DNA from: Shigella phage vB_SboM_Phaginator
Direction: 5' to 3' (one strand)
Sequence record: OL615012
Length of the DNA: 64,000 bases
The position numbers were made by a program, and so were the translations under genes. Below the pieces are notes generated by a model. The model worked only from the letters and a program-made list of their open reading frames with translations, ran no database searches and was not told the origin of the DNA. Positions within the stretch are counted from its first letter, which is position 1, and every line of letters starts with the position of its first letter. Of this stretch, positions 9,519 to 15,505 are shown piece by piece.

Positions 9519-10523
9519 TTAACTTACCAATTCAATCCAAGCCGGACGAAGTACATCTTGTACCATTTTAACTAATTCCTTTTTAATCAAAGAAGGATTA
9601 TCCGCTTGAGTTAGAGTAATACCTTCACGAGAAGTTTCTTCCAAAATATCTTGAACAGTTAGTCCCATCACCTTTCCAAAATCTTTTGGACCAATTTCGC
9701 CAATTTTAGAAATAACGTTATTTACTCGGTTCAGTGTAACGTAGCAAGCTAAAATTCCCAGCAATTTATTATCAGCTTCTGACAGCTCAACTTTAGCTTT
9801 AATAGGCTTATCAGACTTTTTCTTTTCACTAAATTTGGAATTCTTGCATTTAATAGCTACACGATTGCGATTAGGCAGCCAAGAAGGATAACAAGGTTTC
9901 AATACATATCCTTCAGCGGTAAATACTTCGCCTTTGGCTTCGGCATTCCAAACGCATTTATTTGCATCAACTAATCCAGCATGGTCTACTGTAAAATTAT
10001 AATCTTGGACGACAGAATCTAAATCATTTGGCAATTTAATAAGCTCTTCAAATTTACCGCGGCCTAAAAGTGGAGCCATTTTAAACCCAAATGAATTACA
10101 AAACGATTCCATCATGTAATCATCAACATAAGTTACATCACCACTTTCTGTAGTAACAATAATGTCAAATACATAAAAATCTTTATCGCCATAATCAACA
10201 TTCTTCTGAATGCCAGGTCCAGCGAATTCGCCAAAAACTTGATAAGATACAACCGCTGAAGTTTCCATAATATCTTGTACTGCTTTAATGGAATCAGCGT
10301 AATTCTTCAAAATAATTTCATACCCAAAGAAATCTTCAGCAGGAAGAATAGGACCAGTGCGTTTAGCGCAAGTTACTTTATCACGCTCAATAATTAATGA
10401 GAAATTTGTGCCGTGAATCTTTTCACGAGCCACCCATTCGCCGCCAGTCAATCCTAAACTGTAAAGTTTTTCAATAAATTTAGAGTTGTAATGATTTTCA
10501 AGACTGCTATACTTTTTAAACAT
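9519..10523 (-). CDS. rnlB: RNA ligase 2
   Basis: 334-aa ORF with nucleotidyltransferase KxHG motif (KIHGTN); T4 Rnl2 length and position. Confidence 0.9.
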
Positions 10524-10532
10524 AATTAATCC

Positions 10533-10811
10533 TCAGAATGTAATTTCTAACCAATCACCATCACGTTGATCACTATTGACTTTAAAATTAAATCCTTCTT
10601 TTCTCAGCCAATCACCAATTTCTTCAGTAATCAATTTATCGCGAGCAGTACAATAATAACTAAAATATGTTTTACCTTGTTCAGCTGCTTTATTAGCAAG
10701 TTCTGAAAAATCTTTAATAAAACACTCTAGCTTAAACTGTTTACTTTTAAGTGCTTTTTCGCGTAATTGATTAGCAAAAGATTCATTTTCATAAAGATCA
10801 TACTGTTCCAT
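10533..10811 (-). CDS. Hypothetical protein (T4 24.2 position)
   Basis: 92-aa ORF packed between rnlB and next ORF. Confidence 0.6.
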   Translation of the reverse strand: MEQYDLYENESFANQLREKALKSKQFKLECFIKDFSELANKAAEQGKTYFSYYCTARDKLITEEIGDWLRKEGFNFKVNSDQRDGDWLEITF

Positions 10812-11013
10812 TTTTCACCTTTTTATTGATATGTCTTTTTCTATAGACAACTTTTTCTCGAGTTTCAAATTTATTCTTAGCAGTCATAGCTCGAGCCCAT
10901 AATACAGCCACTTCTTTCGCCTGTAAGTTTAATTCACGAGCAATTTCAATGAATGACTTTCCAGACTCATGAAGAGTAAACACCACAACCTCAGTTCTCA
11001 TAATCAATCTCAT
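10798..11013 (-). CDS. Hypothetical protein (T4 24.3 position)
   Basis: 71-aa ORF; start codon uncertain. Confidence 0.5.
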   Translation of the reverse strand: MRLIMRTEVVVFTLHESGKSFIEIARELNLQAKEVAVLWARAMTAKNKFETREKVVYRKRHINKKVKNGTV

Positions 11014-11081
11014 GTTATCGAGTTGGTGCCATTATATACATCATTTTCTGAGTGTGTTTTGTGTGCTTTCAAAATGAAGAA

Positions 11082-11098
11082 AGGGGCCGAAGCCCCTT
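11082..11098 (-). terminator. Hairpin downstream of hoc
   Basis: GGGGC-CGAA-GCCCC stem-loop just after hoc stop; weak U-tract. Confidence 0.45.
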
Positions 11099-11102
11099 AC
11101 GA

Positions 11103-12521
11103 TTATGGATAGGTATAGATGATACCAGTTTCTAAAGCAGTTTTGTGAATGATGTATCCATTACGCGATTCTTGAACATCAACTTCTGGATAATCTTTCA
11201 TCATTTTCTGAAGAGTGTAACGATGCAAGTAGTATTTACTATCTGGATCTTCAGTTTTCCAATCTTTACCTTCTTCAGTCATTTTTTGTATTTCATCCAT
11301 AACCCACCAACCGCACCAGATGTAAGCTGAAGTACGATGTGGAAGAGGATGAACATAAGGTAATTCACCTTCTGGTTCCGGAGCAACTTTATCAGTCACT
11401 TGAACTTGACCTTCTGCTGTAATAGTTTTGCTATCATAATCAGTAGCAGTAACAATTGCCGTAACTTCAATAGTTTGACTTCCAATAGATGAGGTATCAA
11501 CGGTATATACATTAGTTGACCCTTCTACAGGAGAAGAATCTTTCTTCCATGAATAAGCAATTTGTGCTTCTTCTGGTGCATCAGTGACATTAGCAGTAAA
11601 TGTGGCCGAAGCATCTTGCTGAACATTAATAGAAGGAGGAGTCAATGTAACCTGTGGATTCATTGTCTTCTTATTAACTGTTAATGATACTTCATTAGAA
11701 GTAACTTCCTTTTCATTGTAATTTTCAGCAGTTACTTGAGCTACACATTTAATTCTTTTTACTCCACTTGTAGTTGGAGTATAGCTAAATGTAGAGTTAG
11801 TTTCTCCACCAACTTGTGAATCATCTACATACCACTGATACGTAGCAGATGCTCCATCAGGTTGAGAAGCTAAGGCAGCAGTAAATTGAACTGGGGTTCC
11901 AATTACTCCAGCTGAAGGACTATCGGGAGTTACTGCCAAAGTAGTTGTCTGCGTCTTTTTATTAACAGTCAGTGATACTTCATTAGAAGTAACGCTCAGT
12001 GCATCATAATTTGTCGCGGTTACTTGAGCTATGCACTTGATTTTTTTAACTCCGCTTGTGTCAGGAGTGTAATTGAATGTAGCGCTAGTCGCTTCGCTCA
12101 CAGGAGAATCGTCAACGTACCATTGATACGTAGCGTTTGCGCCCGATGGCTGCGAAGCTAAAGCGGCAGTAAATTCAACAGCTGTTCCGATTACTCCAGC
12201 GTCAGGGTTATTAGGAGTTACAGCTAAGGTAGTCGTTTGTGTCTTATTTTGAACTGTGATAGTTGTTGTCGCTTCAGCCGTTTCCGGGCCTCCTTCAGAA
12301 AGTGTATTTGTTGCAACTACTTTAATAGTCTTTTGACCGGCAGGTCCTTTTAGTACATAACTAAAAGTTGCTTCAGCTCCATCTTGTGGAACATCATCTA
12401 CAGTCCAAGCATAGGTAATAGTTCCACCTCCAGTTTCACCACTGGGTGTAGCAGTAAACTGCTGAGTCTGATCTATAACTCCAGTAGGTGTTTTAGGAGT
12501 TATATCAACTGTAAAAGCCAT
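11103..12521 (-). CDS. hoc: Head outer capsid protein Hoc, with four tandem Ig-like domains
   Basis: 472-aa ORF; N-terminus and C-terminal capsid-binding region match T4 Hoc (376 aa) as recalled; contains an internal 96-aa tandem repeat. Confidence 0.9.
   Translation of the reverse strand: MAFTVDITPKTPTGVIDQTQQFTATPSGETGGGTITYAWTVDDVPQDGAEATFSYVLKGPAGQKTIKVVATNTLSEGGPETAEATTTITVQNKTQTTTLAVTPNNPDAGVIGTAVEFTAALASQPSGANATYQWYVDDSPVSEATSATFNYTPDTSGVKKIKCIAQVTATNYDALSVTSNEVSLTVNKKTQTTTLAVTPDSPSAGVIGTPVQFTAALASQPDGASATYQWYVDDSQVGGETNSTFSYTPTTSGVKRIKCVAQVTAENYNEKEVTSNEVSLTVNKKTMNPQVTLTPPSINVQQDASATFTANVTDAPEEAQIAYSWKKDSSPVEGSTNVYTVDTSSIGSQTIEVTAIVTATDYDSKTITAEGQVQVTDKVAPEPEGELPYVHPLPHRTSAYIWCGWWVMDEIQKMTEEGKDWKTEDPDSKYYLHRYTLQKMMKDYPEVDVQESRNGYIIHKTALETGIIYTYP
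11670..12245 (-). repeat. Tandem in-frame duplication of a 288-bp Ig-like domain unit within hoc
   Basis: Two consecutive 96-aa units (KTQTTTLAVTP...SNEVSLTVNK) nearly identical at protein and DNA level. Confidence 0.85.
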
Positions 12522-12530
12522 AAGTTATCC

Positions 12531-13211
12531 TTATTTTAATGTTACGAAAGAAGAATTGCGTGTTTCACGAATTAAAACTGATCCGTCACGGTTAATGTAA
12601 TAAATTAAGCTAAATAAAGTTTGGTGTGCAGAAGCATGCTCAAAACTAGTTGGGTGAGATTTCCAATCAGGAGTTTCAGCAATCCATTGATAAATCCACC
12701 AAGGAACGGTACAAAATCCTGGATTTTTTCCTAATAGTTGAAGATTTGGACTAAAGTTTTCCGGAAGAGTAAATACAGACGGCTTTTCAGATTCAATAAT
12801 CTCAGCTACAGCCTGTTCGAATTTTTCTTCAACAAAAGGAGTATCTTCAATCAAAACTGAGGTATTTTCAGGAATTTTATCAGTTTCTACTACTTCAATT
12901 TTAATGTCAGATTTAACCGGAGAATCAATCAGAAGTGCTGCTTCTGGATTGACTTCTTCATCGTCATATTTTAACCCCTCTGCAGCATCAGCAGCATTGA
13001 TTAAGTCTTTAATAGATAACCCATCAGTCTCTGGCATAGGTTCACTAGCGAGCTTCTGGAGGGCTTCTTCAATATCAACAACGATATTATCAAAAGATTT
13101 ATTCTTTTTGACCTTTATACCAAACTGTTCAGCATATTCAGCTAATTTAGCTTTAGCTTCTTTGTTATCATCAAGAGCCTTCAGCTCTGCAATATAATCT
13201 TTATCTATCAT
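12531..13211 (-). CDS. inh: Inh, inhibitor of prohead protease (hoc.1)
   Basis: 226-aa ORF immediately downstream of hoc on same strand, as in T4. Confidence 0.75.
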   Translation of the reverse strand: MIDKDYIAELKALDDNKEAKAKLAEYAEQFGIKVKKNKSFDNIVVDIEEALQKLASEPMPETDGLSIKDLINAADAAEGLKYDDEEVNPEAALLIDSPVKSDIKIEVVETDKIPENTSVLIEDTPFVEEKFEQAVAEIIESEKPSVFTLPENFSPNLQLLGKNPGFCTVPWWIYQWIAETPDWKSHPTSFEHASAHQTLFSLIYYINRDGSVLIRETRNSSFVTLK

Positions 13212-13224
13212 AATATTTCCTCAG

Positions 13225-13232
13225 TATAAATA
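13225..13232 (+). promoter_or_regulatory. Late promoter TATAAATA for uvsW
   Basis: Exact motif 30 bp upstream of uvsW ATG. Confidence 0.65.
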
Positions 13233-13261
13233 TAGATATATTTATTACATGGTATTTAGAC

Positions 13262-14773
13262 ATGACTGACATTAAAGTACATTTTTATGATTTTAGTCAC
13301 GTGAGAATTGATTGTGAAGAAAGTACATTTCATGAACTCCGTGATTTCTTTAGCTTTGAAGCTGATGGGTATCGTTTTAATCCGAAGTACAGATATGGCC
13401 ACTGGGATGGACGAATCCGTCTGTTAGATTATAATCGTCTTCTTCCATTCGGCTTAGTCGGGCAAATTAAAAAGTTCTGTGATAACTTTGGCTATAAAGC
13501 CTGGATTGACCCACAAATTAACGAAAAAGAAGAATTATCAAGAAAAGATTTTGATGAATGGCTTTCTAAATTAGAAATCTATTCAGGAAATAAAAGAATT
13601 GAACCGCACTGGTATCAAAAAGATGCAGTGTTCGAAGGATTAGTTAATCGTCGTAGAATTCTTAATCTTCCAACATCCGCTGGTAAATCGTTAATTCAAG
13701 CTTTGCTTGCGCGATATTATTTGGAAAATTATGAAGGTAAAATTCTTATCATTGTTCCAACAACTGCTCTAACAACTCAGATGGCTGATGACTTCGTTGA
13801 CTATCGTTTATTCAGTCATGCAATGATAAAGAAAATTGGTGGCGGAGCATCAAAAGATGATAAATATAAAAATGATGCACCAGTCGTTGTTGGTACATGG
13901 CAAACTGTAGTAAAACAACCAAAAGAATGGTTCTCACAGTTTGGAATGATGATGAATGATGAATGTCATCTTGCTACAGGAAAAAGTATTTCATCTATCA
14001 TATCAGGTTTAAATAACTGCATGTTTAAATTTGGTCTATCAGGTTCATTACGTGATGGCAAAGCTAATATCATGCAGTATGTTGGAATGTTTGGTGAAAT
14101 ATTTAAGCCAGTAACGACTTCTAAATTAATGGAAGATGGACAAGTAACTGAGCTAAAAATTAATAGTATTTTTCTTCGCTATCCAGATGAGTTCACTACT
14201 AAATTAAAGGGAAAAACTTACCAAGAAGAAATAAAAATTATTACTGGGCTCAGTAAAAGAAATAAATGGATCGCTAAATTAGCTATTAAGCTTGCGCAAA
14301 AAGATGAAAACGCTTTTGTCATGTTTAAACACGTATCGCACGGTAAAGCTATTTTCGATTTAATTAAAAATGAATACGATAAAGTTTATTACGTATCAGG
14401 GGAAGTTGATACCGAAACACGCAACGTAATGAAAACCTTAGCTGAAAACGGTAAAGGAATAATTATAGTAGCTAGTTATGGTGTATTTTCTACCGGTATT
14501 TCAGTTAAAAATCTGCATCACGTTGTTTTAGCACACGGTGTTAAATCTAAAATTATTGTATTGCAAACAATAGGTCGCGTATTACGTAAGCATGGTTCCA
14601 AAACAATCGCAACAGTCTGGGACCTCATAGATGATTGTGGTGTTAAGCCAAAATCTGCTAATACGAAAAAGAAATACGTTCATTTGAACTATCTTTTAAA
14701 ACACGGCATTGATCGTATTCAGCGCTACGCAGATGAAAAATTTAATTACGTAATGAAAACAGTTAATTTATAA
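13262..14773 (+). CDS. uvsW: UvsW DNA/RNA helicase (SF2)
   Basis: 503-aa ORF with helicase Walker A (PTSAGKS) and DECH box; T4 UvsW. Confidence 0.93.
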   Translation: MTDIKVHFYDFSHVRIDCEESTFHELRDFFSFEADGYRFNPKYRYGHWDGRIRLLDYNRLLPFGLVGQIKKFCDNFGYKAWIDPQINEKEELSRKDFDEWLSKLEIYSGNKRIEPHWYQKDAVFEGLVNRRRILNLPTSAGKSLIQALLARYYLENYEGKILIIVPTTALTTQMADDFVDYRLFSHAMIKKIGGGASKDDKYKNDAPVVVGTWQTVVKQPKEWFSQFGMMMNDECHLATGKSISSIISGLNNCMFKFGLSGSLRDGKANIMQYVGMFGEIFKPVTTSKLMEDGQVTELKINSIFLRYPDEFTTKLKGKTYQEEIKIITGLSKRNKWIAKLAIKLAQKDENAFVMFKHVSHGKAIFDLIKNEYDKVYYVSGEVDTETRNVMKTLAENGKGIIIVASYGVFSTGISVKNLHHVVLAHGVKSKIIVLQTIGRVLRKHGSKTIATVWDLIDDCGVKPKSANTKKKYVHLNYLLKHGIDRIQRYADEKFNYVMKTVNL

Positions 14774-15252: not shown

Positions 15253-15280
15253 GATTGTCTCCTCTGAATTATATATCTAT

Positions 15281-15505
15281 TTATACAACTCTCATATGCA
15301 TATCAATGCCCATATCTTTAGAATAAAAATATTCATCAAGATATCCGGCAAATTTTCCTTTAATATAAAGGACATCTTCACCACACGGGTGGTCGGCCAG
15401 GATACGAATATCCTGACGCTTAAGATTATACTTTTTCATTAAGAATTGAATTTCCGTTTCAAATTCTTCTTCATAATTAAAAGCATCATCAATGTTATAT
15501 CTCAT
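15281..15505 (-). CDS. Hypothetical protein (T4 uvsY.-1 position)
   Basis: 74-aa ORF with ATGA-type overlap with uvsY stop. Confidence 0.6.
   Translation of the reverse strand: MRYNIDDAFNYEEEFETEIQFLMKKYNLKRQDIRILADHPCGEDVLYIKGKFAGYLDEYFYSKDMGIDMHMRVV

Follow-up and report, generated by a model that had tools for sequence, protein, structure and literature searches.

The gene studied here lies in a stretch of 64,000 nucleotides from Shigella phage vB_SboM_Phaginator (OL615012), which is called the window below. It encodes Hoc, a non-essential outer capsid decoration of T4-like phages that sits as a monomer at the centre of the gp23* hexamer on the expanded capsid, in up to 155 copies. The reading frame is uninterrupted on the minus strand, and the gene order uvsW / inh / hoc / 24.3 / 24.2 / rnlB is that of T4 except for the extra segE of T4. 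The features are listed below, with the flanking genes taken from the ORF list of the window, the hairpin from a terminator scan and the sequence, and the ribosome-binding motif read from the sequence.

9519-10523, rnlB-like ORF
10533-10811, 24.2-like ORF
10798-11013, minus strand, 24.3-like ORF
11081..11098, minus strand, terminator-like hairpin GGGGC-TTCG-GCCCC with a T-rich tail, 4 nt past the hoc stop
11103..12521, minus strand, hoc CDS, 472 aa, TAA stop, long allele with four Ig modules
11106..11384, minus strand, predicted C-terminal capsid-binding domain, aa 380-472, aligned with T4 Hoc aa 284-376 with few substitutions
11385..11669, minus strand, Ig-like domain 3, aa 285-379, aligned with T4 Hoc aa 189-283
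11670..11957, minus strand, unit B, domain-2-type Ig, aa 189-284, corresponding to domain 2 of T4
11958..12245, minus strand, unit A, domain-2-type Ig, aa 93-188, the unit missing from T4
12246..12521, minus strand, Ig-like domain 1, aa 1-92, carrying E29 and G33, aligned with T4 Hoc aa 1-92
12528..12532, minus strand, Shine-Dalgarno-like AAGGA, 6 nt before the hoc start codon (ATG), sharing bases with the inh stop
12531-13211, minus strand, inh
13262-14773, plus strand, uvsW

The AAGGA motif is probably the Shine-Dalgarno sequence of hoc. No exact copy of the T4 late-promoter consensus TATAAATA was found on the minus strand just upstream of inh and hoc, and the nearest upstream copy on that strand is at 15278-15285. 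An exact copy is present on the plus strand at 13225-13232, in the inh-uvsW spacer, where it points to uvsW. This spacer (13212-13261) measures only 50 nt and, without segE, has the RB30-type arrangement, whereas in T4 a homing-endonuclease gene, segE, separates the two genes. Two further observations concern the small ORFs of the region. The 24.3-like ORF encodes 71 aa, compared with 56 aa (171 nt) in the T4 annotation and with 186-204 nt in relatives. On the strand opposite the 3' part of hoc lies a GTG-initiated ORF of 61 aa (11145-11330, plus strand); its product is of low complexity and rich in hydrophobic residues, and the ORF most likely arose by chance.

When the window protein was searched against the PDB using phmmer, it matched T4 Hoc (5vf3_Z) with an E value of 9e-223, and 8t1x and other entries were matched as well. 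At the DNA level, hoc is 94.5-95.6% identical to many Tequatrovirus and Mosigvirus records, including RB30 and RB27, and such matches span T-even phages of Escherichia, Shigella, Serratia and Proteus. The best GenBank match reached 95.6%, and the exact allele of the window is absent from that collection. The window protein has a computed mass of 50.7 kDa and a pI of 4.47, against 40.4 kDa and 4.74 for T4 Hoc. All sequence-level hallmarks of Hoc were found, namely the C-terminal domain, the string of Ig domains, the genome position and an acidic pI, the value of 4.47 agreeing with the acidic pI (about 4-5) reported for Hoc homologues (PMC10385173).

An earlier note on this DNA had given the length of Hoc as 472 aa, against 376 aa in T4, and had ascribed the excess to one in-frame unit of 288 bp, or 96 aa, repeated in tandem at 11670-12245. 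The lengths were confirmed by the ORF list and by alignment with T4 Hoc, and the coordinates correspond exactly to aa 93-284. Tandem Repeats Finder reported a single array at 11665-12245, with a period of 288, 2.0 copies, 74% matches and a score of 640; a second repeat search delimited two copies of 288 nt each, at 11665-11952 and 11953-12240, with 74% identity. The phmmer alignment splits in two, aa 1-106 of the query being aligned with T4 aa 1-106 and aa 189-472 with T4 aa 93-376. The window Hoc therefore corresponds to T4 Hoc plus one extra unit of 96 aa, and T4 has one module fewer.

The two units are less alike than the "nearly identical" of the earlier note. Units A and B differ at 76 of 288 nucleotides (74% identity) and at 22 of 96 residues (77% identity), and the longest run of identical DNA is 21 nt. 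The note's other point on similarity stands, since either unit is only 38-41% identical in protein to domain 1 or domain 3, that is, 41% or less to the other Hoc domains. Because of this difference between 77% and 38-41%, we regard A and B as copies of one type, that of domain 2. Unit B is the closer to domain 2 of T4, with 92% identity in protein and 91% in DNA, rising to 100% across the central 96 nt, while unit A is 81% identical to it in protein. The ends of the units, KTQTTTLAVTP and VTSNEVSLTVNK, are conserved, and unit A includes the SPVSEATSATFNYTPDTSGVK region.

The proposal of four Ig-like domains followed by a capsid-binding domain, also made in the earlier note, agrees with the T4 alignment, the Pfam matches and a structural model. 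Over the two units, significant Pfam matches were obtained with PKD (43.7 bits, cut-off 23.5), PKD_4 (33.0, cut-off 27) and PKD_3 (27.3, cut-off 26.3), the best PKD stretch being aa 195-267, in unit B. Unit A gave matches to Ig_2 and BiPBP_C, and domain 3 to Ig_3 and I-set (aa 289-373), the latter two under their curated cut-offs. In the AlphaFold2 model, built from 30 homologues, aa 1-379 form a row of four all-beta modules, with block-mean pLDDT values mostly of about 85-95 and of 76-80 at the linkers. Domain 1 is all-beta in the model (block-mean pLDDT 80-94), and unit A is a beta-sandwich (pLDDT about 90-95) with the same strand pattern as unit B. When the model was compared with the PDB using Foldseek, the top matches were strings of four Ig domains (Dscam1 Ig1-4, Sidekick Ig1-4 and ICAM-5 D1-D4, E about 1e-12), and the best TM-scores were obtained with linear tandem arrays (4p99, CELSR1 EC1-4).

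The C-terminal 93 residues were modelled poorly (pLDDT below 50). The model being unusable there, aa 380-472 is assigned by homology as the predicted capsid-binding domain. For T4 Hoc, cryo-EM structures of this domain in place on the capsid are available (5vf3, 8t1x and others; PMC10385173). As the C-terminal domains are nearly identical, the window Hoc would be expected to bind at the centre of the gp23* hexamer.

The closest named counterparts of the window Hoc are those of RB30 (AY101183, AAM52483) and RB27 (KM607000 / NC_025448), which also have 472 aa arranged as domain 1, unit A, unit B, domain 3 and C-terminal domain. Their hoc genes are 94.5-94.7% identical to that of the window over the whole gene and differ from it by allelic substitutions only. 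The window Hoc fits this RB30-type long form in its 472 aa, in its in-frame repeat of 2 x 288 nt and in its 94.5% DNA identity to AY101183 over the full length. At the protein level, unit A of RB30 is 95% and unit B 93% identical to the window unit, and RB27 is the nearest genome to the window over 25 kb (97.3%). T4 Hoc (376 aa; AF158101; 5vf3, 8t1x, 8t9r) shares with the window the gene position, domains 1 and 3, the capsid-binding domain and the acidic pI. It differs in its single domain-2 unit, which gives three Ig modules instead of four, and in Q29 in place of E29.

A still longer Hoc, of 568-570 aa with three domain-2-type units and five Ig modules, was encountered in Escherichia phage YUEEL01 (KY290975.3, 1225-2931 of the retrieved segment) and among the protein matches. 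The 568-aa Hoc of YUEEL01 and of Escherichia phages UGKSEcP1/UGKSEcP2 resembles that of the window in its head-to-tail units with a period of 96 aa. It differs in having three such units, the third of which, with the signature DGSLVDGETTTT, is 84% identical to unit B of the window. The Hoc of RB49, for which a crystal structure exists, and that of Serratia phage Muldoon, with 10 Ig domains, are much more divergent and were compared by description only.

The frequency of the long form was estimated using the two-unit segment as a query, from 60 evenly spaced records sampled among the 616 matching phage records. Both units were contiguous in 23 of the 60 (roughly 38%), and in the remaining ones both halves of the query mapped to a single stretch of roughly 305 bp, which is the short form. 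Of the top 120 protein clusters, 78 had a Hoc of 376 aa, 29 one of 472 aa and 7 one of 568 aa, with a few off by 1-4 residues. As predicted from these genes, T-even Hoc is a protein with one, two or three domain-2-type units. In the reference genome of phage T2 (NC_054931.1), two short CDS fragments (1375-1728 and 1806-2231 of the retrieved segment) carry the annotation 'Hoc-like head decoration' in place of a single hoc gene, which suggests that hoc is disrupted there.

The long Hoc allele is already known, being annotated for RB30 and common among sequenced relatives. Five domains are annotated in the RB30 record (AY101183), and its repeat_region entry reads 'intragenic repeat led to appearance of additional immunoglobulin-like domain', and Hoc homologues with 1 to 10 Ig domains have been published (PMC10385173). 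A literature search of limited coverage found no paper on the RB30 or 472-aa form of Hoc, so that prior knowledge of the long form rests on this annotation and on PMC10385173.

The age of the pair was estimated from synonymous and non-synonymous divergence by the method of Nei and Gojobori. In the window, units A and B are separated by a dS of 1.47 and a dN of 0.157 (dN/dS 0.11), and their dS in RB30, mobillu and PM133 is 1.1-1.5. Comparing the orthologous domain 1, domain 3 and C-terminal segments of the window with those of T4, RB30 or YUEEL01 gave a dS of 0.11-0.33, the A-B value of the window being 5-10 times as high. Units at the same position in different phages are 89-95% identical in protein for the first unit and 93-98% for the second. 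Each unit of the window has a closer orthologue in RB30, mobillu, PM133 and YUEEL01 than in its neighbour within the gene. Since each unit is nearest its positional orthologue and the dS is high, the pair would long predate the divergence of the phages compared. On these estimates, A and B are an old, conserved and shared pair with synonymous divergence near saturation, not a fresh duplication, and the dN/dS of about 0.11 indicates that both units are maintained as functional folds by purifying selection.

We therefore read the window Hoc as an ordinary long allele, made of domain 1, units A and B, domain 3 and a capsid-docking domain, in which A and B would be old, recombining paralogues of T4 domain 2 and the product a longer spacer fibre. 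To this reading we give a probability of about 0.9.

How the short and long forms are related was approached by assigning units to classes from the signature of a central loop and by painting the DNA sites at which A and B of the window differ. The loop, at unit positions of about 45-56, reads DDSPVSEATSAT in A, DDSQVGGETNST in B and DGSLVDGETTTT in the third type. In the long forms, the A signature occupies the first unit in 29 of 30 clusters, and the B signature, exact or with one of three sites differing, the second in 26 of 30. Of the short (376-aa) clusters, 36 show the A signature, 30 the B signature and others a mixed one, and these classes are not sharply bounded, average-linkage A/B/C clustering being only partly clean and many short-form units intermediate (for example 86% identical to A and 85% to B). 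By site painting, the single unit of T4 (CDS nt 277-564) is of B type through a long core and of A type over a stretch near its 3' end, and in that of Shigella phage Shf125875 (KM407600; CDS nt 277-564) an A-type core is flanked by B-type ends. In these units the ends track the haplotype of the neighbouring flanking domain. The flanks of the window gene themselves differ in affinity, domain 1 being T4-like (95%, versus 88% to Shf125875) and domain 3 Shf125875-like (95%, versus 86% to T4), which makes hoc as a whole a recombinant patchwork. Such patterns point clearly to repeated exchange of segments among the units, and the hoc locus looks like a recombining cassette with length polymorphism.

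A form with two or more units could have been ancestral in the T-even phages, the 376-aa Hoc of T4 then being a deletion derivative produced by unequal recombination. This is a possible history, to which we would give somewhat less than even odds. It accords with the mosaic of A-like and B-like segments in short-form units and with the existence of short forms bearing A, B or mixed signatures, and the conserved unit ends (KTQTTTLAVTP and VTSNEVSLTVNK) are possible crossover sites. The T4 arrangement is nevertheless the opposite of the A-5'/B-3' chimera that a single crossover would leave, and Shf125875 is B-A-B. On these grounds a single unequal crossover between the two units was rejected as the origin of the T4 short form. 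As the mosaics of T4 and Shf125875 do not fit one crossover, several exchanges are required whichever the direction, gain or loss.

As to function, T4 Hoc has been described as a linear fibre of roughly 180 A, with three Ig domains and a capsid-binding domain at the centre of the gp23* hexamer (PMC10385173). It binds fucosylated glycans, with an affinity that changes upon the substitution D246N in domain 3 (PMC9271167). In the Hoc of phiPNJ-6, E29 and G33 of domain 1 are essential for binding to MUC2 and fucose (PMC11150434). The window Hoc has E29, G33 and D342, the equivalent of D246 of T4, which are sequence proxies for mucin-glycan binding.

In our preferred reading, that of an ordinary long allele, the fibre would exceed that of T4 by one Ig module, which for collinear modules means roughly 45 A on top of the roughly 180 A of T4. 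The mass per Hoc would be higher by about 10 kDa, the capsid anchor would be unchanged, and the glycan pocket of domain 1 would lie farther out from the capsid surface. For the added unit we would expect chiefly the part of a spacer and of an extra antigenic surface, and neither a new enzymatic function nor a new attachment to the capsid. Such a role in reach, with the extra antigenic surface, is the most likely one in our analysis, because isolated domains 2 and 3 of the short Hoc of phiPNJ-6 did not pull down MUC2 in the one study concerned (PMC11150434). However, the effect of D246N in domain 3 of T4 (PMC9271167) indicates that non-terminal modules can matter, and unit A could therefore bind as well. 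The change in adhesion that the earlier note suggested is speculative.

Alternatively, the extra unit might be an adhesin in its own right, with a separate ligand specificity, and its variable loops would make the glycan or cell-surface binding of the long allele broader or different and its antigenicity different. The differences among A, B and the third type fall mostly in two stretches, at unit positions of about 45-56 and 76-83, both of which lie between predicted strands in the AlphaFold2 model. This clustering would suit an adhesin, as would the binding of fucosylated glycans by Hoc Ig domains, the shift in affinity caused by one substitution in domain 3 (PMC9271167) and the maintenance of the unit at a dN/dS of 0.11. 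That same purifying selection acts on the whole unit, however, and there is no sign of a diversifying arms race at that level. We consider an adhesin of this kind rather doubtful.

More speculative, and in our opinion unlikely, is a scheme in which at least three types of domain-2 unit form a fixed-order cassette of one, two or three units. Length and loops would be reshuffled among co-infecting phages, perhaps with the aid of SegE, and selected for mucus reach and adhesion or for antigenic variation. Synonymous divergence between A and B would then be favoured, because it would guard the array from recombinational deletion. The segE-less arrangement has been described as a target for SegE cleavage and homing, with co-conversion of flanking sequence (PMC2330249). 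As hoc lies about 0.7 kb from the SegE target, homing from a T4-like co-infecting phage could replace the hoc allele of the window.

To a recent tandem duplication of Ig domain 2 private to this phage lineage we give hardly any credence: the array is exactly in frame, with a 288-nt period and edges on domain boundaries, but identity between its copies reaches only 74% in DNA and 77% in protein, dS is 1.47 in the window and 1.1-1.5 across phages, each copy has nearer orthologues in RB30, mobillu, PM133 and YUEEL01 than in its in-gene neighbour, following its position across phages, and the two-unit form occurs in about 38% of related GenBank records. An assembly or frameshift artefact was also rejected, the ORF being intact and the same structure being present in hundreds of independent genomes. 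Collapse or expansion by an assembler is impossible, as the copies differ at 76 of 288 nucleotides.

The window contributes one further allele of an already annotated long form of Hoc. Mildly new are the near-saturated synonymous divergence of the adjacent units, the fixed-order series of one, two and three units and the mosaic nature of the short-form units. T4 vaccines and vectors are engineered with Hoc as the display scaffold, and the model of phage adherence to mucus has Hoc as its adhesin, which makes the natural length of the fibre practically relevant. A scaffold of 472 or 568 aa would show N-terminal fusions farther from the capsid, and could alter the retention of therapeutic phages in mucus.
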